DNA of 64,000 bases. It comes from a virus. The DNA lies in IMG/VR virus record IMGVR_UViG_3300042503_001836, positions 32,001-96,000 of that record; one strand, written 5' to 3'. Positions within the stretch are counted from its first letter, which is position 1. The number at the start of each line of letters is the position of its first letter. Of this stretch, positions 5,769 through 43,300 are shown in pieces. The notes under the pieces are model-generated. The model did no database searches, had not been told where the DNA came from, and was given only the letters and a program-made list of their open reading frames with translations. Position numbers and translations under genes: made by a program.

Positions 5769-8700
5769 ATGCCAGTAGTTAAATTTTCTCTGAATCAGTA
5801 TCGTGCTTACTTTGACTTAGTTAAGCCTCAATATATTAGCTGGGATTTCTATAAAAAATATATAGACAGAAAACCGCCATTTGGCGAGTTAGGTGCAATT
5901 ATATATTTGAGAACTTACAGCCGATTTATTAATGAACTAAAACGCCGTGAACTATGGCAAGAAACCGTATTAAGAAACATTGAGTACAGCCTAAGCTTAG
6001 ACACTGTAACCCCATTAGAGGACAAATTTACAGAAGCTAAAGCGTTATTTGATATGATGTTTAACTTGCAGGGTTTTCCTGCGGGTAGAAGTCTATGGAC
6101 AGCAGGATCACCACAAACTGAAAAAGATTCATCCAGTAATTGGAACTGTACATTTAAGACTGTAGACAGTTTAAGCGCGTTTAGTGAGATTTTTTATTGG
6201 TTGTTAATTGGTGCTGGTACTGGTTTTAGTGTTGAGCAAAAATATATTTCTCAACTACCAGAATTTAATGCAAAAGTCCATGTGATTCATGAAGACTACA
6301 ACTATCAAAAGAGACTTGATGGTACTTTTGTTAATATCACAGATTCAGAAAGTAGTCCGCAGTTCCTAACAACTTACACCGATTTTGTAGAGACTTCAGA
6401 AATAATTAGACCTGACAATGAGTTTGTTAGACATCTAGATGATAACCACAAGATAGTTAGATTACAAATTGGCGATAGTAAAGAAGATTGGTGTAATGCT
6501 TTGAGAATATTTTTAAAAGCATTGACTAATAAAAATGTAGAGAAAATCTACATTAATTATGATCCTATACGTCCGCAGGGAACGCCTATCAAAACTTTTG
6601 GCGGACGTGCTAGTGGGCATAGAACATTATTAGAAATGTTTGATAATATTTCATATGTTCTTCAAAGATGTTCAGGTGTTTTAGCCTCTATTGACTGCTT
6701 AGATATCATAAATGCTTTAGGTTATAACGTAATGGCAGGTGGTGTACGTCGCTGCTTACCTAAAGGTACATTAGTTCATCTTCAAAATGGACTAGTACCA
6801 ATTGAAAAAGTCAAAGTGGGTGACATAGTAGCAACATCAAAAGGCTATCATCAGGTGACTGACTTTGTTTATCAAGGTATTCAACCAATATCCCAAATTA
6901 CAACGCAAGCGGGCATTTTTGAATGTACAGATAAACACAAAATAGCGATCATTTCTGACACTCAAGGTAACTATATCTGGAAGCAAGCTAAGGATATACA
7001 AATTGGTGACAGAATGGTATTTGTTAAAAATACTATTCCAGGTACAGAAACTAAACTTCCAGAATTTGACTACATTTATCCTGAACATAGTACAACCTGC
7101 AAAGCAATAACCATACCGGATATGAGTGATGATATCGCCTATTTGCTAGGTTTCTTACACGGAAATGGTTATGTTAGACTAACATCTTCAGAAGGAAATA
7201 TCAGCTTTGCAATAGCTCCTGATTTACCACAAATAGTAGAAAAAATTGACAGTATTATTAAGCAGTTCGGTGTTCATACAAAATTACGTGAACCCCAAGA
7301 AAATGATAACTGCTATAAGCTAGTAATTAAGTCAAAACAATTAGCTACTTTTTTAAGTCAGTTTAAGTTATCTAATCAAACTTTAGTTATTCCCGATCTA
7401 ATTCTTCAGGGTCTTGATTCTTATAGAGCAGCATACACGGCAGGCGTATTTGATGCCGACGGTTCAGTTAAAAACAGACCTATTACTGTTGCCACAAGTG
7501 TTTATCCTGAATTTTTGAAACAGTTGCAAGTAGTTTTATCAAGTTTAGGCATCTTAACTACTTTAAATAAAAAAAGAGATGCTAAAGGCAATTGGAAAGC
7601 ACTTCACATACTTAATCTGAAAGGGGAAATGTTTATTGATAGATTTGAAAGACAAGTAGCATCATTTTCACTTAAGTTTAGAGACAATAGAAAATCTGCA
7701 AGATCACAAAATGATTTTGGTTTTCCGTCCAGGATGGTCACTTCTGATAAAGTTAAGTTTGGCAGTCAATGGGATGCTAAATGTAAACAGATGACTGTAG
7801 CTAGACTTGAGAAAATCACAGGCATTGAGGTTTATAGAGTCCCTGTAGAAGTGTTAAGTATCAATCACGCGGTAAGAAATGATTACACTTACGATATCAG
7901 TGTGGATTCAGTAAATGAGTTTATTGCTGATACTGGTTATTTAGTACATAACACTGCTGAACTGGCTCTAGGCGATAGTTCAGATGAATCCTTTAAGACC
8001 GCAAAAGTAGGACTGTTTAGTGATCCAGCTAAAGCAAGAGTTAAGGATCTAAGAACAATGTCTAATAACTCTACAGGCGAATATGATCATCCTGGAGTAG
8101 ATGCAATTAATAAGACATTTGAATGTTTAGAAACTCAAGGTGACCCAGGTTTTTGGATTATTGGAAATAGTCAGAAATTAGCAACATCACCCGTTAAAGG
8201 CACGAATCCATGTGCTGAAGCGGCTTTAGACGACAAACAATCATGCAACTTAACGACTAAGAACGTTAGGGCTTGCATATACTTTGATAAAAAGTCTGGC
8301 AAGTGGGAGTATAACTGGGAACTAGGGAAAAAAGTCATTGAACTAATTACCCGACTAGGAACTCGGATCACACTAGCTAAACAATGGCATCCAGAATGGG
8401 ACAGAACACAGAAGAGAGATCGTTTGCTTGGAGTTTCTATGACAGGCGTAATGGATGCCTTTGATCTACTTGGTTGGGATTATGAGCAGCAAAAGTATTT
8501 CTTCCAATGGTGTAAGCAAACAGCGATAAAAGCCTCAGACGATTACCACGACTATTTAGGAATTAACAGAAGTGCTAGAGTCTGTTTAATGAAACCAGAA
8601 GGAACAATCAGCCTACTACCAACCGTTTCTAGTGGTATCCATCGCGCTTATGCTCCTTACTATTTACGTCGCGTTAGATTTAGTAAATCAGATCCTTTAG

Positions 8701-9209
8701 CACAAGTATTATTAGACTTGGGTCTTAAACCTGTACCGCAAAATGGGCAAGGCGACGATTTATTCAGTGATATTTGTAATACTTGGGTCTTTACATTTCC
8801 TATCAAGACTAATGCTAAAACTCGCGCAATTGATGAGCCAGTTACAGAACAATTAGAACGCTATAGACTAGCACAAACTAACTATGCTGATAGGGGCCAT
8901 AACATTTCAATAACTGTAACTGTTGCGCCAGATGAATATAAAACAGCCGCAAATTGGGTAAATGATAATTGGGATGACATTATTGGAATTGCTTTTTTAC
9001 CTAGATTTGATCCGGTTGAAGGTGGTAAAGCAGCTTATCCTTTGATGCCCCTAGAACCGTGTGACAAGGAAACTTATGAAGCTTTGAAAGCACAATTACC
9101 TGTACTTTCTCAAACAGATATTATCAATAAATTATCTGAGATTGAGAAAGGATTTGAGGAACAGGAATTAGATCAAGGATGTGTTACAGGTGCGTGTCCT
9201 ATTCGCTAG
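5769..9209 (+). CDS. nrdJ: class II (B12-dependent) ribonucleotide reductase, intein-containing
   Basis: YLRTYSR, PAGR.LW, NCTF, GAGTGFS, TFGGRASG, GGVRR, TNPCAE, KPEGT, C-terminal CVTGACPIR. Confidence 0.93.
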   Translation: MPVVKFSLNQYRAYFDLVKPQYISWDFYKKYIDRKPPFGELGAIIYLRTYSRFINELKRRELWQETVLRNIEYSLSLDTVTPLEDKFTEAKALFDMMFNLQGFPAGRSLWTAGSPQTEKDSSSNWNCTFKTVDSLSAFSEIFYWLLIGAGTGFSVEQKYISQLPEFNAKVHVIHEDYNYQKRLDGTFVNITDSESSPQFLTTYTDFVETSEIIRPDNEFVRHLDDNHKIVRLQIGDSKEDWCNALRIFLKALTNKNVEKIYINYDPIRPQGTPIKTFGGRASGHRTLLEMFDNISYVLQRCSGVLASIDCLDIINALGYNVMAGGVRRCLPKGTLVHLQNGLVPIEKVKVGDIVATSKGYHQVTDFVYQGIQPISQITTQAGIFECTDKHKIAIISDTQGNYIWKQAKDIQIGDRMVFVKNTIPGTETKLPEFDYIYPEHSTTCKAITIPDMSDDIAYLLGFLHGNGYVRLTSSEGNISFAIAPDLPQIVEKIDSIIKQFGVHTKLREPQENDNCYKLVIKSKQLATFLSQFKLSNQTLVIPDLILQGLDSYRAAYTAGVFDADGSVKNRPITVATSVYPEFLKQLQVVLSSLGILTTLNKKRDAKGNWKALHILNLKGEMFIDRFERQVASFSLKFRDNRKSARSQNDFGFPSRMVTSDKVKFGSQWDAKCKQMTVARLEKITGIEVYRVPVEVLSINHAVRNDYTYDISVDSVNEFIADTGYLVHNTAELALGDSSDESFKTAKVGLFSDPAKARVKDLRTMSNNSTGEYDHPGVDAINKTFECLETQGDPGFWIIGNSQKLATSPVKGTNPCAEAALDDKQSCNLTTKNVRACIYFDKKSGKWEYNWELGKKVIELITRLGTRITLAKQWHPEWDRTQKRDRLLGVSMTGVMDAFDLLGWDYEQQKYFFQWCKQTAIKASDDYHDYLGINRSARVCLMKPEGTISLLPTVSSGIHRAYAPYYLRRVRFSKSDPLAQVLLDLGLKPVPQNGQGDDLFSDICNTWVFTFPIKTNAKTRAIDEPVTEQLERYRLAQTNYADRGHNISITVTVAPDEYKTAANWVNDNWDDIIGIAFLPRFDPVEGGKAAYPLMPLEPCDKETYEALKAQLPVLSQTDIINKLSEIEKGFEEQELDQGCVTGACPIR
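6753..7952 (+). mobile_element. 400-aa intein with LAGLIDADG homing endonuclease in nrdJ
   Basis: GGVRR|CLPKGT start, YLVHN|T end; LAGLIDADG blocks YLLGFLHGNG and YTAGVFDADG. Confidence 0.93.
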
Positions 9210-20725: not shown

Positions 20726-20750
20726 AGCTTGTTTTACTTATTTTTTTTAT

Positions 20751-20779
20751 AATATAACTGCATTTAAAAATAATGTCAA
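20751..20779 (-). promoter_or_regulatory. sigma70-type phage promoter
   Basis: TTGACA-17 bp-TATATT on the minus strand. Confidence 0.75.
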
Positions 20780-21503: not shown

Positions 21504-21532
21504 TGTTTTATCTATGTTTCCTTTGCTCTCTT

Positions 21533-21561
21533 ACTATAACTGCATATAAAAATAATGTCAA
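21533..21561 (-). promoter_or_regulatory. sigma70-type phage promoter
   Basis: TTGACA-17 bp-TATAGT; near-identical to the 20751 copy. Confidence 0.75.
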
Positions 21562-21696: not shown

Positions 21697-23301
21697 TTAC
21701 CTGGTTAAGCTTTCAAAATCAGAATCAAAGCAATCTTTTGATTGCAGTTCATTTGCACACCATTTAGCGATCACTGGCTTACAGTCGTTCATTGCGGACA
21801 AGTCATTATGAAAGGCTCGATAGTCTTTATGAGAGCCTTTTAACTGGCATCTTTCAAAAAGTTTAAGCATGAGTAGTCTATTCTTGTACGGAATATGATA
21901 CTTGTCTGCTAAGACTTTGAGCATTTTTTCTACATCTAAGATGGCATCAAACACTTGGGGATAATAGAAATGATGTCTTTCTAAATAAGGCAAGCCCCGG
22001 TACTGTTCATGTATATACAACTCTTGATCTGGTGGTAAGTATCTAGTTGGCATAAAGGGTAGACTGTTTGCAGGTGCTACGTCTACAATCATTTTTGCCC
22101 AGCTTGAAAAAGCGCATATAGAACAGTACAATTGTTTTTCACTAGAATAGAATTGCCGCAAAAGTCCTACAAAAGTACGCATCTGATGACGTAATTTGTA
22201 ACTAGCATCAAATCTTGGGTAATCTCTCTCTAGCAGTTTTCCCTTCTCTACATCAGATTGTGCTAACCGTTCTAAAAGGTAAGCTTCCTCAAGATTATTT
22301 TGGGATCTGTAAGTATTTATCTCAAACAAGTCTAGTCGTTCTGGATAGTCTGCTTTAAACCTGTCAACCATTGCATTAATCAATGGTTCATCTTTAACCA
22401 GCCGATTTTCCTTAGCAGTAGCACAGACTATTTTGCTAATGTCCTTACGTCTGCCAAATTTAGAAACGCCTTGCTTATCAGTAGAAACTAAGGTTTCTTC
22501 ATACAGCATATTAAAATCCAGACTGAAAAGTTTATCCCACTGCCAAGTTTTCAGATCACAACCACGTCCAGGTACACCCCTGGTAGTAGTCAATGCTGCG
22601 GGTAAAGTAGTATTTACAATCTCGATCCGGTCTTTTGATAGTTGGTCAAGTGAGGATACGCCACAATCCCTTCTAATTTTATAAATCGTCCAGAATATCT
22701 CTTTCAGATTATTGATGTGCTTGAAGGCGTTTTTCTGTACCTGTGGAGGCAAAACTGCTAAATCCTGGTAGTAGCTTTTGCCGTCCCTAAACTCTAGGAG
22801 ATGTTGCCAGATATCGGAAATGTGATCTCGGAAGTATTCTAGATTAGCTACTTTATGATCCGTCCTCCTTAACATTTCCGCAGTGATGTCTAGACGGTCG
22901 TGTAAGGAGTCCAAATCAGTCTGCCCTCCTAAATGTACCTGAAACCCGGTAACGTGCTGTATATAGGCACGTAGTCCAATATGCCCAATAGAGACTAGAG
23001 ATTTTATTGCTTCGGAGTTCCTTTCTATTTCTGCATAGTAGGCAATTATCCCAAAAGCATAATTGCTGTCAAAAAGATTCTGATGCCCAAAGACATCTAG
23101 CAGATATTGAGATTCTGTCTTTTTGTAAAAACATTGAAGCGGTTCATAGTTAGATAATGTTTGTCTTACGTTATTGACTAATCTACCTACTGTAGTTTGA
23201 TGCACTCCAGATAGTTTAGCGATCGCTTCCTGATTTAACCCAGTTTGACCACCATCCAAGGCAATGAAATACTGGTCATCCTTAAAAAATTGGTACGGCA
23301 T
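21697..23301 (-). CDS. 534-aa protein with N-terminal HTH (antirepressor-like) and possible C-terminal HNH-like domain
   Basis: LNQEAIAKLSGVHQTTVGRLV HTH; CSIC...LERHH...RCQLKGSH...FH. Confidence 0.55.
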   Translation of the reverse strand: MPYQFFKDDQYFIALDGGQTGLNQEAIAKLSGVHQTTVGRLVNNVRQTLSNYEPLQCFYKKTESQYLLDVFGHQNLFDSNYAFGIIAYYAEIERNSEAIKSLVSIGHIGLRAYIQHVTGFQVHLGGQTDLDSLHDRLDITAEMLRRTDHKVANLEYFRDHISDIWQHLLEFRDGKSYYQDLAVLPPQVQKNAFKHINNLKEIFWTIYKIRRDCGVSSLDQLSKDRIEIVNTTLPAALTTTRGVPGRGCDLKTWQWDKLFSLDFNMLYEETLVSTDKQGVSKFGRRKDISKIVCATAKENRLVKDEPLINAMVDRFKADYPERLDLFEINTYRSQNNLEEAYLLERLAQSDVEKGKLLERDYPRFDASYKLRHQMRTFVGLLRQFYSSEKQLYCSICAFSSWAKMIVDVAPANSLPFMPTRYLPPDQELYIHEQYRGLPYLERHHFYYPQVFDAILDVEKMLKVLADKYHIPYKNRLLMLKLFERCQLKGSHKDYRAFHNDLSAMNDCKPVIAKWCANELQSKDCFDSDFESLTR

Positions 23302-23306
23302 ATGTT

Positions 23307-23531
23307 CTATGGTTGTGTTTGCTGTTCTAACGCTTGTTTCATAACCTGAAATACTTTCTTGATTCTGGAATAGCTTGCTGTTTCATAGCCAGAATCAATC
23401 CAAATGCGGACTCGTTTATAGCTAAAGCCTGTCTCACTTGCTAATTGTCTTTTAGACCATCCCAACTGCAAGCGCATCAATTCCAGTGTTTCATGCAACT
23501 TGTTAATGTCAACCTGTCTTAAGTCTAACAT
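23307..23531 (-). CDS. XRE/Cro-like HTH regulator
   Basis: MRLQLGWSKRQLASETGFSYKRVRIWI. Confidence 0.75.
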   Translation of the reverse strand: MLDLRQVDINKLHETLELMRLQLGWSKRQLASETGFSYKRVRIWIDSGYETASYSRIKKVFQVMKQALEQQTQP

Positions 23532-23854
23532 AAAAAAAGTCCTAAAAAGTCCACTATCTAAAATATATCAGAAAACGTGCTTTCTTTATAAAAATAAATA
23601 AAACAGCACCATTACACTATAATTTCCTATCTGTCAATCAGTAATTTTTTGAAAAACTCTATTTTTGCACGATACTTCAAATCTTTATACAGTAATAGTT
23701 TTAATGCCAGACGGTAGGAATAAACAAAGGTATCTGCACTATAGTATACAGATATACAGCAATATAAAAAATACTTAAATAAATAGCTGAAACTATTGAT
23801 ATATAAAGCTTTTCACTTTTAATGTTTTTTAGTAAGTGATGTTATTAACTGTAG

Positions 23855-23918
23855 GGTGATCCAAAAGTTCTAAAAACGATAGCTTATATATTATGATTTT
23901 CTCAACTTTTGGATCACC
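23855..23918. repeat. 15-bp perfect inverted repeat with 34-bp spacer
   Basis: GGTGATCCAAAAGTT (23855-23869) / AACTTTTGGATCACC (23904-23918). Confidence 0.85.
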
Positions 23919-24199
23919 TTAGCTTTTTTTGCTATTTTTCTCAGTAAATTATAAGTAATCCGTATTAAAAATAACTTTAGTAAAAAACATATTAAAAACT
24001 ATATTTTAACTCCTAGAATACTTATATAAAGCCCACTCTGTTATTACAAGTCGGCGCGGAAATTCCAATTAGCTAACTATAAACACTTAATTAGGTAATT
24101 TATAAAACAGTAAGCAGTTAGTATAGTAATTATGTACTAAAGTAAAAATTGACAGCACAAATGTTTGAGCATTTTTAGTTAAAAAAACTTTTTAATGCC

Positions 24200-25115
24200 C
24201 GGTTTTCTATTTAATTTTTTAAGCCGTAATAAACCCTATGGATAACTGACATCCTATCCACTAGATGTCAAGGGCTATAGCTGGCTGTTAACCTACAGCC
24301 AGAGTTACTTTAGTTTCTTCAAATTAATCAGGTTGCGAGCCGTCATTCTTTTTAGTCCCCTCAGATAAATCTGTTTTACCCACAGATGGGAGTCAAATTA
24401 CCTTTTAACCAATAGGCTTGTCTGTTTTTGTTTAGGATTCGCGGTCTTCAACATACTTCATCCAAGACGCTAAGTGTCGTTTAGCTGCGTCCTATTTACT
24501 TGATCAGCTAGGTTACTGATATGTGGGTGTTTTTACATCTTGCTCTGATGGTTTTTGCGCTTATACAGTCGCACTTTCGATACCCAATAGAATTTGCTAA
24601 CATCTACACCGCCGCACCTGGAGTCATTTATTTCTAAAAGTAGTTCCCATTGTCGTTTCAATCCAACTCCCTATTAAGAGAGTATTTATACATTCCCCTT
24701 GTCTAGTTAATACCTAATGTTCATGGAAATCGCGCTCAAATATGGATCTAGTTTTTTGGTTCAATCCCTTCAGTAAAGTCTCACTACCTTACTAAATTTT
24801 TGATATCCCCTCAAGTCCGCCCAATTATATTGTCCCCATTTCAGGGTATCGTCATGGCCAACGCAATCTGCACTACTTTTTTATTGATTCACTTTTAATC
24901 CTTACAGGATTTAGGTCTCAACTAGAATCCGCCACGCGCACGCATACGGACTAGAAGCAATTTCCAATTAAAAACTAAATGAGAGTCTTTAATTTTCAAG
25001 CCGGGTAATGACTTCACCGACTCATCTTGCGTTCCTTACTGGTCTAGGGCTTTTATAATAAACGCTGAGGTGTGTTACAACGCTCGATTGTTTCGCCTAT
25101 CAGATTTATTCGATT
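24200..25115 (-). ncRNA. large structured non-coding RNA, GOLLD-like
   Basis: ORF-free, own consensus promoter, many hairpins; ordered motifs (GUCAUUACCCG, UUACUGAAGGGAUUGA..AAAAAACUA, CAGGUGC, GUAAAACAGAUUUAUC) resemble GOLLD as recalled; 3' end approximate. Confidence 0.65.
24655..24691 (-). CRISPR. solitary 37-nt CRISPR-like repeat inside the large RNA
   Basis: GTATAAATACTCTCTTAATAGGGAGTTGGATTGAAAC: 7-bp hairpin plus ATTGAAAC end. Confidence 0.7.
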
Positions 25116-25121
25116 AAATAT

Positions 25122-25150
25122 AATATAACACGGGATAAAATAAATGTCAA
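25122..25150 (-). promoter_or_regulatory. promoter of the large ncRNA
   Basis: TTGACA-17 bp-TATATT with TG extended -10 and no ORF downstream. Confidence 0.75.
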
Positions 25151-25163
25151 CCCCATATAAAAT

Positions 25164-25194
25164 AAAAAAACCTAGTAATTTTGTACTAGGTTTG
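25164..25194 (-). terminator. intrinsic terminator after the solitary repeat unit
   Basis: AAACCTAGTA-CAAAAT-TACTAGGTTT followed by a T run. Confidence 0.75.
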
Positions 25195-25267
25195 AGTTCT
25201 TATTACTTAGAATTAATTAAAACTAGGGGCTTTTCTGTTGCGGTTTCTGATATCTTAGCTGGTTTAT

Positions 25268-25304
25268 GTTTCAATCCAACTCCCTATCAAGGGAGTATTT
25301 ATAC
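25268..25304 (-). CRISPR. solitary 37-nt CRISPR-like repeat followed by a spacer-like segment
   Basis: GTATAAATACTCCCTTGATAGGGAGTTGGATTGAAAC; 35/37 identical to the 24655 copy. Confidence 0.7.
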
Positions 25305-25353
25305 CATAAGCTTGTGTTTTATGGTTTCTAAATTCATTTTAACACAAATGTGC

Positions 25354-25623
25354 TTACTTGACTTCAAATACATAACCAGATTCAGTTACTTTGACTAATC
25401 TCAATACAGTATCAGTCCCGTCTTTTTTCAGGCTACCTTTCCACGCTAGGCAACCAAAAGATGTTTTATCTCGAATGTCTTCCGCTTCCTCTAAAAGCTG
25501 TTTGCATCTAGTATTATACTTTTTCCAAACATCCTCTATTTTGCAGGATGTAAACTTAGCTACAATTTTGTTATTAGCAGCTAAGATATGGTATTCTGTT
25601 TTTTCTGTATTTCTTAAAGTCAT
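25354..25623 (-). CDS. hypothetical protein, co-transcribed with the solitary repeat
   Basis: 89 aa, AAGGAG RBS, promoter at 25736-25764. Confidence 0.65.
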   Translation of the reverse strand: MTLRNTEKTEYHILAANNKIVAKFTSCKIEDVWKKYNTRCKQLLEEAEDIRDKTSFGCLAWKGSLKKDGTDTVLRLVKVTESGYVFEVK

Positions 25624-25735
25624 CTTATTCTCCTTATTTTTTTTTAACTTGACACAACTCGGGATAATGCCTAATTTTAAGAGTCACCTATTTAAGGCGA
25701 TGTTTGGTTTACCTTTGTTTTTTAACCACACTAAT

Positions 25736-25764
25736 AATATAACAGCATTTAAAATTAATGTCAA
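25736..25764 (-). promoter_or_regulatory. sigma70-type phage promoter
   Basis: TTGACA-17 bp-TATATT. Confidence 0.75.
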
Positions 25765-25970
25765 GCATTTTATAAAACTATTTTAGAAGTATAAAATATT
25801 ATACATAAGTTATAAATATTTAAATGTTATACATAATACACTCGGATCAAGACTTATACAAAATCGGGATATCTCACAATCCAGAAAACAAAACCATTCT
25901 AGGTAAATCAGAATAGTTTAGGCTGTGTCCTGAAACCTTAGAATGGCTAGATGAATTTTTGAACAAACAC

Positions 25971-26603
25971 TTAACTTCTAATTCTGTTTACTGAAGGAAA
26001 CCCACCAAATCTTAAAGTATGCCCGTGATATTGTTTACACGCGTCTAAATCTTTTCTACAGGCTCTATTAGCTGGTGTAGTAGGATTGCCAAAGATGTCA
26101 AAATTAAGATTAATAGGTGCTTGACAATCTTGATCGCCTAATTGCCACTGGCATCTTTTAGAATATACCCTAGCTGGTAGTTTCTTTCTTTCTAATGAGT
26201 AGGGAGTTAGGGAAAATGTAAATTGATTTTGATATTCTCCAGTGTACTGATTAATCTTTAAATTTAATTCATAGAATTGTGTAGAGTCAGCCGTAGGTTT
26301 ATCGTCTAAAAACATAGGCTGCGTACGTTTTACGTTTACGTCCGCACCGATAACAAAATAATTATCAATTACATCTCCAACTAAACCAGATATATCAGAA
26401 ACTATTAAGGATGCACGTGCTTCTACACTTTCACCTGATTTGCTAAAACTACTAATTTTACAAGGAAAACCTTGATAAATAGTGTTACTAAAACTTACAG
26501 TTCCATAGTTACAGATTTTAATATCAAAATCTTGGTTTCTGATATTAATTAAATCTATAAATATTTCGGTGTCTAGCTGTTGGGCATTGGATATTAAACT
26601 CAT
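25971..26603 (-). CDS. lambda gpL-like minor tail protein
   Basis: Start likely MSLISNAQQLD; LPARVYSKRCQW...DC...C.K.LDAC...RFGGFP Cys cluster. Confidence 0.85.
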   Translation of the reverse strand: MSLISNAQQLDTEIFIDLINIRNQDFDIKICNYGTVSFSNTIYQGFPCKISSFSKSGESVEARASLIVSDISGLVGDVIDNYFVIGADVNVKRTQPMFLDDKPTADSTQFYELNLKINQYTGEYQNQFTFSLTPYSLERKKLPARVYSKRCQWQLGDQDCQAPINLNFDIFGNPTTPANRACRKDLDACKQYHGHTLRFGGFPSVNRIRS

Positions 26604-26631: not shown

Positions 26632-27089
26632 CTAAGGTATGTGTGCTGAATATAAAGAAACATGATCCACGATATATCCATTAGCAGCACTAGCAATTCC
26701 AAAAGAATGAGTGTGAGTATCTTGCGCTCCTAGTCCGTAGATACTCGCATTAACTGCTGTGCCATTAGCAATGGTAGTCCTAATCGGTGTAAGAAACATA
26801 GGCACTCTAAAAGGAAAATAGAGGAATAGATTTCCTACTTCCGGAGACTGTAATCCATTAGTTATCAACTGAGCGTATCTCTGACACTTAGCTAATTCAA
26901 CAGCGTAATCATCAGAAGTAAAAGCAGTAGCACTACTGCCTTCTTCTAGTTTTGGGCGTGAGATTACCCATGTTCCTGAAGTTTGCGCTCCTACCCTTAG
27001 TCTTACTTCCAATCCATTTGATACCTCAGCAGGTAATGTTACTGTAGCTGTATATCTTGTAAGTGTGGAGTTAACAGTCCATGTAACAT
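26632..27089 (-). pseudogene. 5'-truncated tail-fibre cassette (third paralogue)
   Basis: 104 bp identical to 27906-28009, then a distinct tip ending AHIP; the ATG after the RBS is out of frame with the fibre frame. Confidence 0.7.
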
Positions 27090-37321: not shown

Positions 37322-40300
37322 TTATCTGTTGTAAGGATTACCACGATTAATAGAACCGCCTACTCTCATTTCCCGACGAATACCATCTGATACCATCGCT
37401 TGTACAGCCTGTGACAGTCTGTAGGTATCTACTTCAGAATCACTGCCAACCTCAACACTTACAGGAACATTTATAGTTGTCGTATTGCCAATCTTAGATG
37501 CCATACTACCGTTACCACCTGCACCTACAACACCACCATTAGCAAACCCAGCCACACCGCTTTGCAACTTATTCCAAATAGCGGTTTCTTTGTGGTTAAG
37601 AACCCGTTCACCTTCAGAAGCAACTATTAAATGAGGCTTACGTCCAGTAATAGATCGCTCCTTATTCATTACCCCAACTATCCCGCCATCAGCAAACATT
37701 GGTAAAGTAGCAAAACCAAAATCTGTAGGAATAGCATCAAATAATCCAGGCGTAGGATTAAATCCCATAGAATTGGCATTAAACACAGAACCAGAGAGAA
37801 TATCAAAAGTGCCACCAAGAAGACTGCTAAAAATATCACCACCCGCGTCCATTGCTGTGTTTGCCACAGTTTGACTACTTAATGTTAAAGCAGCTTGCAT
37901 CAACATTTGCCCAGCTTGGTTTAATGTCATACCTGCCAGGTTGAGTCCATTAGCACCAACACTCAAATCAGCTAAACCTTTAACAGCATTTATACCATCA
38001 GTTGGTTTTTCATCTTTCTTTTTATTTCCAAACAATCCCTCAGTCCAACCAAATAGAGCATCAGTCATGCGTTTAGATGCCATATCAGCTAGAGGATCAA
38101 GGAAACCTTTCATAATAGAGTTAAATAGATCACTTACGGACTCGCCAAACCCTTTTGTACTTAATAGGAACTCCTTAAACCCGCCCCTAAAGCTACTTGT
38201 GACACCTTTAACCACAGTTCCTAACTCAGAGAATTGTAGTTTAATAGCGTCTAGTTTTGCTTCATTAGTCAGCTTGAGATTTTCCCGTAAAGTATTAATC
38301 TGTTCATTAGTTAACTTATTAGCTTCCGTAGCTTCAGCGTTCTTTCTAATAAAATCATCTAACTGAAGCGTAGCCTTAGCAAAATCCATCTGTTGATTAT
38401 TAATAGCCAATTGCTTATCAATCTTTTCAGCACGGAAATCAAGACCATAGGCTTTGAGTAGAGAACTTCTAGACTCTTGTACACCTTTAAATGAATCCTG
38501 GATAAATTGCACTCTTTCTAATAATCTAGAAGGAATATTTGCATTTTCAGCAATACGATCATTTTTTTGTTTTAACTCAATATTTTGTTTATTGCGTTCA
38601 AATTCTTCCTTAACGTAGTCCCTTCTTTTCTTAGCTTCTTCAGAAGAAATAGACCGACTATTTTCTTCATTTGTAATAGCATTAAGTTTTTCTTTATATT
38701 CATTCTCGGTATTTAATAAAGCTAGGTTTGCTTCTAAATCAGCAGTTCTAGCAGACCTTGGATCAAGTGGGTTTAATTGCTGTAATAGTTTACGCTGTTC
38801 AACTTGTTTTTGGAGTAAACTAATTCGGAGTTTTTCAGTTTGTAATGTAACTCCTGTTCGTCTAGATATTTCCTCTCTATTAAATTGTTCTACTCTTGCT
38901 TCAAGTATTTTAGGAGTATTTTGATTTAATTCAGCTAATGCTTTTTTAGCTTGTATATTCTGAAGTACAGTAGTTTTAAAGACCTCGTTATTTGTATTAA
39001 TTGCGTTAAGTGCCTGTTCAGGACTGTCTGGAAATTTCTCTAAAGATGCAACAAAAGCAGCTTTTAGTAATTTTTCATTGTCAATTACACCTTGAGTATC
39101 ACGAACTGTTTTTTCTAACGCTTCTCTCTTTTTCTCTAATGAACGAATAAGCTCTTGATAGCCAATCAAGAATCGTTCAACATTACTCATGTTGGGAGAC
39201 AAGCCCTCTCTTATAGTTTTCCAAATATCTAAATCAGTATCTTTCATACTGCTTTGAATTTGAAACATAGATTCAGTAGTTTGTCTAAGTAAACGATATA
39301 ACCCTAACAATTGCTGTGTTCTGTCTGTTAATAGCTGGGACTCAGTATTCATAGAGTTGGCTGCATTTTGTCCATCGGCTGTATTGAATTTAAGATTTGT
39401 TGCATCTGTAACATTTGATTGCATTTCGTCAGGAGTAAGAGTCCCGCCAGTATTAACTAGTTGATTCAACCTATTAAGATTTTCTTGATAAGTCTTTAAG
39501 AAATTACCATGTTGTCCTTGGGGTGTTCCTTGTCCTTTATATGCACTTCTATTCTTACCCGACTGGATACTGGCATAATGTAGTGCAAGTTTATTTAATA
39601 CAGATGTATCTACTTGACCTTTCAAAACTTGATCTAAAACACCTCTAGATTTTAAGGAATGAATAAAATACAAATCTTGCATACCCGGGCTAAAGCTTGG
39701 TTGATCCTGACCTTGATAGTCTGTCAACTTAAACATATCCGGCATGGCATTTTTACCAAACTGTTTTTTAGCCGCTTGGATAGATGCGTTAAAGTTCATC
39801 ATCTGATAGCGTCCGGCTGCAGTGCTACTGTTGTTAATCCACTTAATCCAAGTTGGTTTCCTACCAGTTCCCACATAGGGATGTTTAGAGAAATCAGTAA
39901 CATTCTCACCACCAATCGTTAGACCATAGCCAAAGTTCCTAGTATTTTTTCTAAAATCAGAACCCTCAGCATTAGCCACAGCATTAGCCAAAGCTAAAAT
40001 ATACTTATTCTTACGCAGTTCATAAAGTTGTTTACCAAGTGGGGTTAGTTTTGCATACTCTTCAGGGCTTAAGTCATTACCACCTTGAGATATTCCTGAA
40101 GAATTTTTAATACCTATCGTACCAGGTACAGGCGGTAATATGGGAACGGGTTGTCTTTTTGGCAACGGCTTAACCTGTGATGCGACATTCTTAGCTATTT
40201 CTACCGCACCAACAGCTTGATCAAAGACAAAACTCTTAATACCCGTACTCTTTAATGCTTGCTTAAATTTATTAAATTCTGCTTCGTTAGCAAATACAAT

Positions 40301-43300
40301 ACAACCACTAGAGCCAGGATCAACAAGTCTGTCCTTATCAATGTGGAAACCAATAGCGGTTCGTTCTGTTTTAAAATCAGGTTCAAGTCTTATAAACTCA
40401 TTCCCCATTTTAGCCTTATTGCCGCTAGGAGTAGTTTTACCAAGTCTATAACTACCAAACTCTACAGGTTGTTTAGACCCTGCTTTTGTTTCACCTGCAC
40501 CACCAAATATTTGAGTATCCGCCTTACCTGAATTAACAATAAATCTATCAACTATCTTTCCTTGTTTAATGACGGCTAACTGGATTTTTTCTAATCCAAA
40601 TTCATCTTTTTGTCCCAATCGCTGCATCCTGATTACAGATTCACCCTTGGACTGACTGGCAGGAGTAACAGTATTAGCTTTAGTTTTAGCAGTTGCCGGA
40701 GGTTGGGAAGCGATCGCACCATAATCACCCTTAGCTAAATTAGCAAGGAACACTTGAGGGTTAATATAGCGTCCGTTTGCCTTAACCCCAAAATCTAGAT
40801 GATGTCCTAATACATTACCCAGTTTTTGCCCAGCTTGTACTTGTACAGGTTTGCTCAAGTCACCAAGAGTATTTTTGATACTATTAAGTGCTAAGTGTCC
40901 ATACTCTATAGTTATCTTTGTACCCGATGGTAATATACTATTAACAAACACAGCAGCATCTTGTCCGCCCCATTTTTGCAATTTAGCTACACCTGCAAGA
41001 CTAGCAATAACTTCTGCACCAGCACCACCCTTAACACGACTGTCAAAATCAACCTTATTGTGTAAACGTCCTGGACGTTGACCCATGACACTTTGTCCAA
41101 AGGTGGGTTTATAGTTAATCAAATCTTGGATAGTCGTATTTTTAATAGGTGATGTAAATTGATTTGCTACTGTAGGTATAACCGTTGGTGCTGGTGTTGC
41201 TGATGCTGCATCCTGTGTTGTAGGTGGCGTTATAGCTGACGATACAGCCGATGTTATACCACCAAACACACGACCTACAGTGTTTAGTAAATTACCTGCC
41301 CAGTCAGAAGAGTTATTTTCATTAGTGACTTGATTTAACTTACCTAAAGTTACATCTAACTTAGTTCCTACGCCCGTCACAGTATCACCAAGTCCCTTAA
41401 AGGCATCGTTAAGACCACTAGTAGCTATTACTGCGTCTTGTCCTAAAGACTTCACAACCTCTTGCACATCAGAGTTTATACCAACAACACTACCCTGAAC
41501 TGTTCTAAGTTGATCGTCAAACTCTTTAATTTTATCCTCATCAAAAGGAACTATCTTACCTGGTAGACTTCGTTGTAATTCACTAGCACGAAGCTTAATG
41601 TCATCAATATTATTTTGATAATCAATTTCCTGTTTTTTAGCATCTAACTGACGTTTTTCCATCTCCGTAGTTTGAGAGATAATATTAATAAGCCCCTCAA
41701 TAAATTGAGTGTAAATGTTATCGCCAGCACCTATCAAAGCTTCTCTAAGCTTGTTTTGCATCCTAGATCCTTCTAGGGTTTTTTGTGCTTTTTGGAACTC
41801 TATGCTTACCGCTTGCGCTTCCCTAACAGAAGCTCTATAGTATTCAGCTACTTGTTTAGTCTGGTCAATCAAAGCCTGTTTCATATCACGCTGGGCTTTG
41901 GCCATTTCTTGTGAGTTTTGAGCTAATGCCTCTCTATCTTTAGTAATATCGCCTCTTAACTTATCAAATTCCGCTTGTGCTTCATTTAAGTTAGTACCAC
42001 CAGCCGCAATAACTTGGCTTATCTTGTCTAAGGCAGCTTGATCACTATTAATCTTTTCAGTTAATAAAGTGCGTTGGCTGCTTAAATCAGCTAGTTGAAT
42101 ATTTGATAATTCCGGTGCTATTTGTTGCGCTGTTCCCGATGATGCGTAAATTTTAGCCTGACTTAAATTAGACTTAATCCTATTAGCAGATGTAGCACGC
42201 TCAAATCTAGTATTTGCATCCTTAACAGCATTGGTAGCTTGGGTATATAAAGCCTCTTCCATAGGTCGGACATCAAACGGTTTTGCCCCAGCAATCATGT
42301 TTTTAAGCTGGTCAATTCGTGCTTGAGTCTTTTGGACAGCAGCAGGAATTAAATTTCCTGTAACACCTTCAACCGCGCCTAGCTGTAACTTTTGCTTATA
42401 TTCTTCTTCCTGTTTAAGCATCCGTTCCAACATAGGCAACGGTGATCCAAAGCTATTAACTAGATCCTCACGTTTTTTGTAAAGTTGTTGAATTAATTGC
42501 TTAACCTCACCTTGTTCCTTACGAACCTTATCACTCGGTAACGCCTTGTTTAGTTCTACACTTCGTTTAGTTGCTGCCTCTAGTTGTTTGTCAATATTTT
42601 TAATCTCTTTAAAATCAAACGCACGTTGTATAGAGGTTTTGATAATGATCTCCTGATTTTTCCTTTGATTTTCTAATGCTTGTAATTCCTCTTTAGCTTT
42701 TTCATATTCTTCTTTAATTTTTTTATCCCGTCTATTAAAGAAAGTAGGTACAGTCAACTTTTCAAATTCAGCTTTCTTTTGCGGAATTTTTTTATCAAGA
42801 TCCTCCATAATTTTTCTATTTTCTAGACGATCACCTACTTCAAACTCAGAGGATTTGATAGCCAAAGTATTCCGCATCTGTTTAGACTGATTTTCTAAGT
42901 TTTTAAAATCAGCACTGTTTTGTATATCTTTAATTTCTTGAGGACTAGCACCTCTAGCTTTTGCATCGGCTAATACAGCTAATCTTCTATTGTTGTTATC
43001 CTCAATTTGTCTGTTAAGATTTGATATATCTTTGTTAGCATTAAATTTTTGTTGCTGTTCTATTGTCAGTGGTTTGATATCAGCTACAAAGTCACTAGGT
43101 TTACCAGTAAATCCTTGACTAGACGCAAACTCTTTTAAGTTTTGGATATTTTTTTCTTGATCCTCAAAATATTTGATAACCTGTTGTTGCGCGTTAGTTA
43201 ATCGGGCGTTTGGATCTTCTGTATCAAAATAGCTTTTTATTCCTTTGTTTTCTGGTTTGTTAAGAAACTCTTTTTGTTTGTCTGTTAGTTTAGGTGCAAA

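Follow-up and report, generated by a model that had tools for sequence, protein, structure and literature searches.

A solitary type I-C CRISPR repeat in a promoter-driven non-coding island of a cyanophage, a putative substrate of the phage's own Cas5

A protein-free stretch behind a consensus promoter

The locus lies in a 64,000-nt window of the virus record IMGVR_UViG_3300042503_001836 (118.5 kb), and all coordinates refer to that window unless stated otherwise. The DNA polymerase A of this virus shows 54.6% identity, over its full length, to those of Nodularia phages, and its TerL is 47% identical to that of Aphanizomenon phage CL131, which supports the initial annotation of the virus as a cyanophage in so far as it is cyanophage-like. 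That annotation had singled out about 900 nt that lack an ORF, follow a consensus promoter and are more balanced in base composition than the A+T-rich flanks, and on all three points our analysis agrees. The promoter is present on the minus strand (Table 1) and is one of only two sites of this quality within 23500-26000; the total number of promoter-like sites in that interval, 12, is no excess over shuffled sequences (10.0, sd 3.7). Within 24200-25143, there is no ORF of more than 42 aa with a start codon or of more than 52 aa from stop to stop, and the next minus-strand ORF of at least 50 aa begins 1590 nt downstream of the promoter. The G+C content of the stretch is 0.38-0.42 vs 0.23-0.30 in the flanks at 23600-24200 and 25100-25400. 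Just upstream of the promoter, an intrinsic terminator is kept in the related phage loci L019, L026, L029, and L031; after the promoter, no minus-strand terminator was found before 23500, hence the 3′ end of the transcript is undefined. By these features, the stretch is a predicted minus-strand, promoter-driven, protein-free transcription unit within a fast-changing intergenic island.

Table 1. Features of the locus in window coordinates, listed in the direction of predicted transcription
Feature	Positions	Strand	Remarks
R1, solitary 37-nt type I-C repeat	25268..25304	-	Matches the array B repeat at 37/37 positions
Intrinsic terminator of the upstream tail-gene/ORF89 transcript	25168..25193	-	10-bp stem followed by a T run
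Candidate promoter, TTGACA-17-TATATT plus TG	25122..25150	-	11/12 consensus positions matched
Short leader	25091..25121	-	Common to G001, where it directly abuts the repeat
Block A, 399 nt non-coding between leader and R2	24692..25090	-	Absent here in G001, L026, L029 and L031
R2, solitary 37-nt type I-C repeat	24655..24691	-	35/37 identical to the array repeat
18 nt directly after R2	24637..24654	-	Without counterpart in relatives; 5′ part of any R2 guide
S, 42 nt	24595..24636	-	39/42 positions match the L031 spacer (nt 1-42 of 52)
Block B, ~380 nt non-coding after S	24214..24594	-	Contains most of the initially annotated hairpins; no L031 counterpart
Conserved A+T-rich block	24118..24213	-	Common to L031 and Nodularia phage 2AV2
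Long inverted repeat, 30-nt arms	23852..23921	.	Fold z -4.2 to -5.8; partly kept in L031
Downstream operon	21697..23531	-	74-aa HTH protein (23531-23307) and 534-aa protein (23301-21697) with N-terminal HTH

Known large RNAs and folding signal

The initial annotation regarded the stretch as a structured non-coding RNA and described several of its motifs as following the order of GOLLD (Rfam family RF01998). A covariance model search against GOLLD, ROOL, OLE, and HEARO contradicts this identity: the 64-kb window contains no match to any Rfam family at the gathering score, and the six weak Rfam matches in 23600-25700 at E<=10 include none of these four families. No model match backs this motif order either, and we reject all four families, and any other Rfam family, as the identity of the stretch, which removes a false GOLLD call. 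GOLLD is frequently a neighbor of tRNA genes; ARAGORN detects none in the window or in the rest of the genome, and a tRNA or tmRNA identity of the stretch is likewise rejected.

Promoter-driven and protein-free are thus descriptions that stand, as judged from the sequence, whereas the structured nature of the RNA finds no backing in fold energy. The predicted fold of 916 nt has an energy of -222.6 kcal/mol vs -214.8 +/- 9.1 for shuffled sequences (z -0.85), with 4 of 20 shuffles folding as well, and the 17 windows of 150 nt inside 25150-24201 all have z between -1.90 and +1.54. The stems listed at the outset, including CTGGCTGT/ACAGCCAG, which was also detected by the search that located the promoter and the terminator, do exist in the sequence but show no excess over chance. 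Some known large RNAs fail this type of comparison with shuffled sequences. Over block A, folds of the minus strand tend to be a little more stable than those of the plus strand.

Solitary repeats of the phage's own type I-C system

Along with the terminator, the initial annotation missed two solitary 37-nt CRISPR repeats, R1 and R2, where no match is expected by chance. The same repeat forms arrays at G000:C1:14365-16572 (31 repeats) and 22339-23888 (22 repeats) of the 118.5-kb virus record. These arrays flank genes for Cas7 (PF05107, 1.6e-87), Csd1/Cas8c (9.4e-61), Cas5d (2.8e-26), and Cas3, and identity to arrays next to cas genes assigns both R1 and R2 to type I-C. The phage Cas5 matches the solved type I-C pre-crRNA endonucleases 3vzi (3.6e-32) and 8g9t (8.8e-31); Cas1 was not found in the phage genome. 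Among 185,579 species genomes, a 28-mer of the repeat has no match and a 17-mer has 87 single matches, with none occurring more than once per stretch among the 80 listed, as expected by chance. The repeat therefore appears in no array of these genomes and would be a repeat of the phage lineage rather than one taken from a known host. For the 51 array spacers, searches of the phage genome itself, of the related loci, and of the INPHARED phages gave no target.

Altogether, the genome carries seven solitary or degenerate repeats at five loci, all in sense orientation to the local promoter or the neighboring ORFs; the five besides R1 and R2 lie in 5′ leaders and between cistrons. A full-text literature search yielded no case of a type I-C system with dispersed single repeats in a cyanophage. 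The repeat folds into a 6-7-bp stem followed by a T and then by the handle TGGATTGAAAC, 11 nt in length and ending in ATTGAAAC, which is invariant or nearly so in 17 copies; an 11-nt 3′ handle is reportedly the length typical of type I-C. Across the 12 distinct repeat variants, pairing is preserved in 93% of the stem cells, and there is hardly any variation in the last 12 nt. Covariation in the stem is weak: both partners differ in a single pair only, and 123 of 500 shuffles score at least as high.

In R2, one of the changes converts a C-G pair of the stem to U-G, which still pairs, so that the hairpin is kept, and this hairpin with a free 3′ handle forms in the local fold. R1, which also forms a local hairpin (fold z -2.64), lies between an 89-aa ORF and the terminator and lacks its own promoter; in L029/L030, its place is taken by precisely 80 nt of a small ORF of 48 aa. 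The possibility that R1 stands where relatives have a PAM was tried and rejected, as L029, the only relative with matching DNA, has GCG rather than TTC upstream (0/1). The two repeats are 576 nt apart, with the terminator and the promoter between them, and a mini-CRISPR array in the sense of two to three repeats with normal-length spacers behind a promoter is found in L031 and is lacking in the window. Two inverted repeats bracket R2 (24926-24911 with 24717-24702, and 24880-24864 with 24652-24636); they were set aside, since each crosses the other and chance pairs of similar length occur elsewhere in this region.

Solitary viral repeats immediately bring to mind RNA anti-CRISPRs (Racrs) and crRNA-like regulators, in which case R1 and R2 would soak up or re-aim the Cas proteins of the host or of a competing phage. 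Both repeats keep the hairpin and the handle, solitary repeat units behind viral promoters are the defining picture of Racrs (PMC10651486), and viral crRNA-like regulators have been described (10.1101/2024.10.29.618823). Nevertheless, we give this explanation very little credence, the least of those considered here. The phage itself carries arrays of this repeat along with cas genes, and therefore a decoy would sap the phage's own system too; furthermore, no host array with this repeat occurs among the 185,579 species genomes, a set outside which the true host may lie. Racr candidates were chosen with a promoter within 250 bp (PMC10651486), whereas R2 lies ~425 nt from the predicted transcription start and R1 is devoid of a promoter. 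An element with a Racr would also be free of cas genes, which this phage has. With respect to a regulatory role, none of the phage's promoters was found to be partially matched beside a PAM-like flank, and neither the phage genome nor the neighboring DNA contains a site with at least 11 of 14 seed matches beyond background.

A mini-CRISPR locus in the relatives

The segment 25205-25104 shows 90-96% identity in four relatives, and in all four that reach the promoter (G001/L019, L026, L029, and L031) a repeat follows 10-33 nt after it, which points to the leader promoter of a mini-CRISPR locus. L031 displays the layout of promoter, repeat, 52-nt spacer, and repeat; apart from the similarity of its spacer to S, the first 16-18 nt of S are also found after the repeat in L026 and L029. 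Thus, 18 nt after R2 stands a spacer that relatives have in a one-spacer mini-array immediately behind this promoter, and the candidate promoter at 25122-25150 is, to judge from this sequence comparison, the leader promoter of a CRISPR locus that is the third of this phage and vestigial. The L031 spacer itself matches this phage at 32 of 35 positions, next to TTT.

L031 is the only relative that spans the locus. Between 25104 and 21697 it differs from this phage, with flanks that are 85-93% identical, and both large blocks are replaced there by unrelated sequence; the L031 site contains a consensus promoter and then ~645 nt without ORFs, and its downstream genes differ from those of this phage. 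A search of IMG/VR with the degenerate repeat pattern and the promoter 24-mer retrieved only G001, and the 534-aa protein and the DNA polymerase retrieved no relatives from that database.

This divergence between conserved flanks, the replacement of part of a small ORF by R1, the shifted guide registers without targets found, and the lack of a fold signal would all suit functionless debris, that is, a recombination scar made of a decayed CRISPR locus and unrelated filler, with transcription owed solely to the survival of the leader promoter. We consider this very unlikely given that both repeats are near-perfect, the G+C content is raised, and decayed genes left no sign among the peptides described below. 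Moreover, the interval 23500-25400 contains no further decayed repeats (the best reaches 19/37, the shuffle mean maximum being 19.8). A decayed CRISPR array filling blocks A and B was rejected on the same grounds, no repeat remnants and no other regular repeats having been detected.

The non-coding blocks A and B

Blocks A and B make up 85% of the unit and have a G+C content well above that of other intergenic DNA. The fold z of block B is within chance, and block A has no translated similarity. The possibility of a decayed protein gene was rejected: 35 six-frame peptides of at least 18 aa, compared by tblastn with the phage's own genome, 2AV2, and seven related loci, gave matches only via R2 and S, and there is no usable ORF. 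An origin as a duplicate of some other genome segment, for example a DGR-like template, was rejected as well, self-blastn returning nothing beyond the repeats and promoter-like stretches. In IMG/VR, exact probes of 23 and 27 nt from the two blocks have no match. The stretch has no blastn match among the INPHARED phages, and plasmids yield only an A+T-rich chance match, on which grounds an origin from a known phage or plasmid was rejected. A host-derived insert or host protospacer was also rejected, the cyanobacterial matches being short or absent: at E<=0.001, 7 of 401 order-level genomes match, all over 23-69 nt (the one match inspected lies within a gene), and at E<=1e-4 none of 389 family-level genomes do.

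Conceivably, the two blocks are the halves of one gene for an uncatalogued structured cyanophage RNA of ~0.9 kb, transcribed from the candidate promoter, into which R2, the following 18 nt, and S (97 nt in total) have been inserted; this comes close to the new large RNA class that the initial annotation offered as its alternative to GOLLD. We regard this as a possible but clearly less probable explanation. It gains from the raised G+C content, from the strand difference in the folding of block A, from the ORF-free stretch behind the L031 promoter at the same site, and from the synteny with 2AV2 considered in the next section. On the other hand, fold energy is at chance level, and the shared leader in G001 runs straight into the repeat and not into block A. 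Comparison of non-coding cores also speaks against an RNA family: neither blastn nor nhmmer nor a count of common k-mers revealed any similarity to those of L031 and 2AV2, alignment being confined to the A+T-rich 3′ block, and two-sequence RNAalifold recovers a single shared hairpin, which lies in that block.

The downstream A+T-rich region and its counterpart in phage 2AV2

The A+T-rich block includes the hairpin GGGCATT...AATGCTC (24200-24167), and the three 500-nt windows with the lowest G+C content of the whole genome all lie at 23501-24200. The 534-aa protein encoded farther downstream has a homolog in 2AV2_84 (31% identity, E 2e-77), which is likewise preceded by an HTH gene and by ~1.2 kb with only 32-42-aa annotated ORFs. 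The 2AV2 non-coding stretch contains a promoter-like site behind a terminator, and the region is 100% identical in all nine Nodularia phage records. The presence of a comparable long non-coding stretch upstream of the homologous 2AV2 gene pair argues that the non-coding DNA itself matters. A combined scheme, which we put forward only tentatively and with somewhat less weight than an RNA gene split by an insertion, is that of an uncatalogued cyanophage RNA family of ~0.9 kb, situated at a conserved site upstream of an HTH gene and a gene for a ~500-aa protein and syntenic in 2AV2, whose member in this phage has acquired its own type I-C repeat; Cas5 would then halve the RNA and deliver the 3′ half to Cascade, and, taken with the five other solitary repeats in sense orientation, the CRISPR endonuclease would serve as a general device for RNA processing or regulation.

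What this phage and 2AV2 share, a non-coding stretch followed by an A+T-rich block, an HTH gene, and the gene for a ~500-aa HTH protein, is also compatible with a transcript that runs through the A+T-rich region into the two genes as a long regulated 5′ leader, or with an RNA that activates or primes an origin of replication, the repeat being a passenger in either case. Consistent with such a transcript, no terminator was found in the 1590 nt before the next ORF, the low-G+C windows hold the long inverted repeat, and the cumulative GC skew has a change of slope at about genome position 55 kb. We nonetheless think it unlikely. The skew change coincides with a switch to minus-strand genes; there are no iterons, no 9-mer occurring three times in 23540-24210; the 534-aa protein has HTH matches only and none to a replication family, its five homologs, with 97, 77, 74, 43, and 40% identity, being unnamed; and the downstream genes are not those of L031.

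An orphan repeat unit as a putative substrate of the phage Cas5

Taking these lines of evidence together, the explanation that we favor, at about even chances, is that of an orphan type I-C repeat unit which lies in a fast-changing non-coding island and is cut by the phage's own Cas5. Its observed basis consists of the repeat identity, the preserved hairpin with the unchanged 3′ handle, the gene for a Cas5d-type endonuclease, the order of promoter and repeat in the relatives, and the absence of coding capacity. Under this proposal, transcription would start near 25115, and the phage Cas5 would cut the transcript at the 3′ base of the R2 hairpin. Such a cut would yield a 5′ RNA of ~450 nt ending in the repeat hairpin and a 3′ RNA beginning with the 11-nt handle TGGATTGAAAC, which might seed a Cascade-like complex on a guide starting with GACAATGG.

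Several observations count against this orphan repeat unit. R2 lies ~425 nt from the transcription start, vs adjacent to it in the relatives; the covariation of the repeat stem is weak; the two blocks, with their raised G+C content, are left unexplained; and there is the synteny with 2AV2. Furthermore, searches for protospacers of the candidate guides were negative in the phage genome itself, in the related loci, in INPHARED, and in the 401 and 389 sampled cyanobacterial genomes, and a self-regulatory guide was rejected, no target having been found. Compared with L031, the guide is 18 nt out of register, a shift that would destroy whatever function the inherited spacer has. Instead of being in use, the unit may be in decay.

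Besides its two long arrays, this phage scatters single repeats through its predicted transcripts, and one of these sits midway in a strongly promoted predicted non-coding RNA of 0.9 kb. If the phage Cas5 does cut these repeats, they would represent a natural example of a viral CRISPR nuclease acting on the RNAs of the virus that encodes it. If the two blocks turn out to form a conserved giant RNA, its connection with CRISPR processing would offer a first clue to what it does. Finally, the locus is a hot spot of difference among related phages, one of which carries a spacer matching this phage, and is therefore a place to study conflict between phages.

Comparison with known systems

What the stretch shares with GOLLD is that it is phage-borne, non-coding, and roughly 0.8-0.9 kb long; unlike GOLLD, it has no covariance model match at E<=10, no tRNA gene in the same genome, and no fold-energy signal.

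Vibrio phage ICP1 carries a type I-F CRISPR-Cas system. Aphanizomenon phage CL131 carries a type V-U2 locus, not type I-C (PMC6293099). Phage-encoded CRISPR-Cas without an adaptation module (reviewed in PMC11656645) resembles the present system in combining an interference-only cas set with arrays on the phage genome; the present system differs in being type I-C, in residing in a Nodularia-phage-like cyanophage, and in possessing the additional dispersed single repeats.

CreA/CreR and the crlRNA class of crRNA-like regulators likewise involve repeats that stand alone or are degenerate, lie apart from the main arrays, and are joined to an atypical "spacer" (10.1101/2023.03.03.530964; 10.1101/2024.10.29.618823), whereas here no partial complementarity to promoters of the phage or of neighboring DNA was detected. 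With regard to virus-borne mini-CRISPR arrays (Medvedeva et al., 2019, PMC6858448; reviewed in PMC11656645), L031 has the characteristic order of promoter, repeat, spacer, and repeat at the same site, and its spacer matching this phage fits the targeting of related viruses mentioned in that review (PMC11656645). In contrast, the array of the present phage is reduced at this site to one repeat with a shifted spacer, R1 and R2 being 576 nt apart, and the Cas proteins are encoded by the phage rather than borrowed from the host.

A further close parallel is with the viral solitary repeat units and RNA anti-CRISPRs, including RacrIC1, described by Camara-Wilpert et al. (2023), who showed that a type I-C Racr works (PMC10651486). 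In both cases, single repeats of type I-C, for which Cas5 is the processing enzyme, occur in sense orientation on a phage genome and keep the hairpin and the handle. The repeat here, however, belongs to the phage's own cas genes and arrays and not to a host system; no acr gene was recognized nearby in searches of a general kind; and R2 lies far behind its promoter inside a long predicted transcript. Processing of the phage's own RNAs, if it takes place, would thus differ both from the decoy (Racr) model and from the borrowed mini-array model described so far.

Layout and coding capacity of the region

Read on the minus strand of the window, about 1.6 kb separate the near-consensus promoter from the 74-aa HTH gene, and no ORF in between reaches 50 aa on that strand. 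Within 24200-25143 the longest ORF with a start codon has 42 aa and the longest stop-to-stop frame 52 aa, and the G+C content is 0.38-0.42 compared with 0.23-0.30 in the flanks. Given these promoter, ORF and G+C results, the raw observation of the initial annotation, namely a consensus promoter firing into a stretch with no ORF and a more balanced base composition, therefore holds. The promoter is one of a near-identical family (TTGACATTA..TGnTATAnT) with members at window 20749-20779, 21531-21561, ~25120-25150 and 25734-25764. Of the 22 near-consensus promoters in the whole genome, 15 have an ORF of at least 50 aa starting 6-130 nt downstream, and two others are array leaders.

Features of the non-coding region (window coordinates) and the cas genes of the same phage
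Feature	Position	Strand	Remarks
89-aa ORF	25623-25354	-	upstream end of region
R1, solitary 37-nt repeat	25304-25268	-	after 89-aa ORF
Intrinsic terminator	25193-25168	-	between R1 and promoter
Promoter TTGACA-17-TATATT with TG	25150-25122	-	near-consensus, 11/12 consensus positions
Block A, 399 nt	25090-24692	-	between leader and R2
R2, 37-nt repeat copy	24691-24655	-	within ORF-free stretch
S, spacer-like stretch	24636-24595	-	starts 18 nt after R2
Block B, ~380 nt	24594-24214	-	follows S
74-aa HTH gene	23531-23307	-	ends ORF-free stretch
534-aa gene	23301-21697	-	after 74-aa HTH gene
Cas7	between arrays	-	PF05107, 1.6e-87
Csd1/Cas8c	between arrays	-	9.4e-61
Cas5d	between arrays	-	2.8e-26
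Cas3	between arrays	+	HD and helicase domains

RNA structure

The proposal that the transcript is a GOLLD RNA is rejected, given that Rfam 15 has no match at gathering scores across the 64-kb window and that permissive filters (E<=10) yield, in 23600-25700, six weak matches, none of them to the GOLLD, ROOL, OLE or HEARO models named in that proposal. The stems it listed are present in the sequence but lie at chance level: the 916-nt RNA has a fold energy of -222.6 kcal/mol against -214.8 +/- 9.1 for shuffled sequences (z -0.85; 4/20 shuffles equally stable), and z stays between -1.90 and +1.54 in each of the 17 150-nt windows within 25150-24201. No tRNA genes were found in the window or in the remaining genome. 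Two of the weak matches are to a CRISPR repeat model and point to a genuine repeat.

The repeats and the type I-C system of the phage

R1 and R2 are two copies of the same 37-nt sequence, for which the chance expectation is 0. The parent record, a 118,553-bp IMG/VR virus (93% complete by CheckV), carries two arrays of the same repeat upstream of the window, with 31 repeats at C1:14365-16572 and 22 (array B) at C1:22339-23888; the unit is set at 37 nt because 51/51 array spacers end in GT. Relative to the array B repeat, R1 is identical at 37/37 positions and R2 at 35/37, one of the R2 changes turning a stem C-G into U-G. The repeat comprises a 6-7-bp stem, then T, then TGGATTGAAAC, which corresponds to the 11-nt handle that Cas5d reportedly leaves (Nam et al. 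2012, cited in PMC10651486). When the sequence around R2 is folded locally, its hairpin forms with the handle unpaired. Stem cells are paired in 93% of cases across 12 distinct repeat variants; one pair has changed on both sides, and 123/500 shuffles reach the observed value, so the covariation is not significant.

The genes between the arrays constitute a type I-C interference module (arrays and genes together at G000:C1:14365-23888, 8-18 kb before the window start). The phage Cas5 matches solved type I-C pre-crRNA endonucleases (3vzi, 3.6e-32; 8g9t, 8.8e-31); no phage-encoded Cas1 was found by a search whose control was positive in 7/14 reference genomes. Five more solitary or degenerate repeat copies are present (C1:195-231, 276-312, 7160-7196, about 26799-26834 and about 26844-26880). 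Of these, the first two have a consensus promoter at the contig start ahead of them, one lies in a 5' leader, between promoter and small ORF, and two adjoin each other between two ORFs that belong to one operon. Together with R1 and R2, the solitary or degenerate copies occupy five loci, and 7/7 have the same sense as the local promoter or the neighbouring ORFs.

Directly after array B lies a second consensus promoter (TTGACA..TATATT; G000:C1:23953-25428) with ~1.45 kb downstream that lacks ORFs of at least 50 aa and matches no Rfam family at gathering score. Array spacer B_3 contains GCGATCGC, presumably the cyanobacterial HIP1 palindrome.

The locus in related viruses

A search with the 89-aa protein recovered seven close relatives (81-99% aa identity), one from IMG/VR (G001/L019) and six metagenome contigs (L026-L031). 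In the four that reach the promoter (G001, L026, L029, L031), the terminator-promoter block 25205-25104 is 90-96% identical, and in 4/4 a repeat begins within 10-33 nt after it. On this comparison with relatives, the promoter is the leader promoter of a CRISPR locus, a small one and the third of the phage. Three of these contigs stop at the repeat or at most 18 nt past it. L031 alone continues, through a 52-nt spacer, a degenerate repeat, a second consensus promoter (TTGACA-17-TATAAT) directly after this mini-array and an ORF-free stretch of ~645 nt (promoter and stretch at L031:4880-5560). An A+T-rich block follows, which matches window 24213-24118. S is identical at 39/42 positions to the first 42 nt of the L031 spacer. 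The ~645-nt stretch is unrelated in sequence to blocks A and B, and comparing L031 with block B by blastn, nhmmer and shared 8-11-mers gave no counterpart. Compared with G001, with which the leader is shared up to 25091, the window has the 399 nt of block A as an addition between leader and repeat. In L031 the whole segment 25104-21697 differs, between flanks that share 85-93% identity with the window; the locus is therefore a variable island. Upstream of the promoter, R1 is an exact 37-nt unit standing where L029 and L030, which both have an intact 48-aa small ORF, carry 80 nt of that ORF. Three other relatives instead have a 138-aa ORF at this site (window 25268-25350; L029:3440-3700 and L030 compared), giving three layouts at one position.

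Blocks A and B were rejected as decayed repeats, decayed genes, copies of other genome parts and regular repeats. They were not found in INPHARED phages or in plasmids, and their exact 23- and 27-mers were not found in IMG/VR. Nor were they found in sampled cyanobacterial genomes: at order level 7/401 genomes matched at E<=0.001, all via 23-69-nt stretches (one inspected match lies inside a gene), and at family level 0/389 matched at E<=1e-4.

Searches of the phage's own genome, the related loci and INPHARED phages gave no target for any candidate guide or any of the 51 array spacers. The one meaningful match is directed from the relative to this phage, which the L031 spacer matches at 32/35 positions, including 13 of the first 14, with TTT upstream. 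Targeting of related viruses by viral mini-arrays is described in PMC11656645, and the L031 match would be targeting of the same kind.

Origin of the repeat and kinship of the phage

The 28-nt repeat core has 0 exact matches in 185,579 species (one genome each). The 17-nt 3' part has 87, which is about chance level (roughly 140 expected in 596 Gb by our arithmetic), and among the 80 stretches listed none holds more than one match. These results argue that the repeat is in no known host array among these species and probably belongs to the phage lineage. The virus is cyanophage-like: its DNA polymerase A shares 54.6% identity with that of Nodularia phages 2AV2, kac65 and kac68 along the full length (100%; 9/18 records matched), and its TerL 47% with that of Aphanizomenon phage CL131.

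Two further genes deserve mention. A single 5050-aa ORF (window 37322-52474, minus strand) may be the same kind of gene as the 3404-aa tape measure protein annotated in 2AV2. Within the 1146-aa ribonucleotide reductase (5769-9209, plus strand), the matches over residues ~324-605 are to HNH/endonuclease PHROGs and not to RNR, as would fit an intein-like insert.

An older non-coding stretch and its alternatives

A homologue of the 534-aa protein is 2AV2_84 (31% identity, E 2e-77); in front of that gene, too, lie an HTH gene and ~1.2 kb in which the annotated ORFs have only 32-42 aa. After a terminator, that stretch has a promoter-like site and ~480 nt of raised G+C, then ~550 A+T-rich nt. The G+C-rich cores of window and 2AV2 have no sequence similarity; the A+T-rich block alone aligns, including the hairpin GGGCATT...AATGCTC (24200-24167). 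All 9 Nodularia phage records share the 2AV2 stretch at 100% identity, and hence these copies yield no covariation. From this synteny, a long non-coding stretch at the site therefore predates the CRISPR repeat inside it, which keeps two alternatives alive. Blocks A and B could together be a conserved giant RNA interrupted by the insertion of a repeat-spacer unit, a reading that we consider unlikely. Alternatively, the stretch could be a leader or origin transcript, which is also favoured by the position, at 23501-24200, of the three 500-nt windows in which G+C is lowest genome-wide.

This segment is the most A+T-rich of the 118.5-kb genome (G+C 0.25-0.27). It holds a 30-nt-arm inverted repeat at 23852-23921, with fold z as low as -5.8 and partial conservation in L031, and the cumulative GC skew changes slope nearby. 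The segment may be an origin or operator region.

Proposed function and comparison with known systems

We regard the parts as securely identified: the promoter is real, coding capacity is absent, the two repeats are genuine ones of the phage's own type I-C system, and comparison with relatives makes the promoter that of a mini-array leader. As to mechanism, we favour, as an even call, that Cas5 would cut the transcript at R2 and thereby release a crRNA-like 3' RNA. A full-text literature search found no cyanophage case of repeats that would serve the phage's own Cas proteins, with one of them mid-way in a long non-coding transcript. According to PMC6293099, CL131 carries a CRISPR locus of its own of type V-U2, in contrast to the type I-C system here. 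The element is of the same kind as viral solitary repeat units and mini-arrays; it differs from them in that the repeats would serve the phage's own Cas proteins and that one repeat lies mid-way in a long non-coding transcript.
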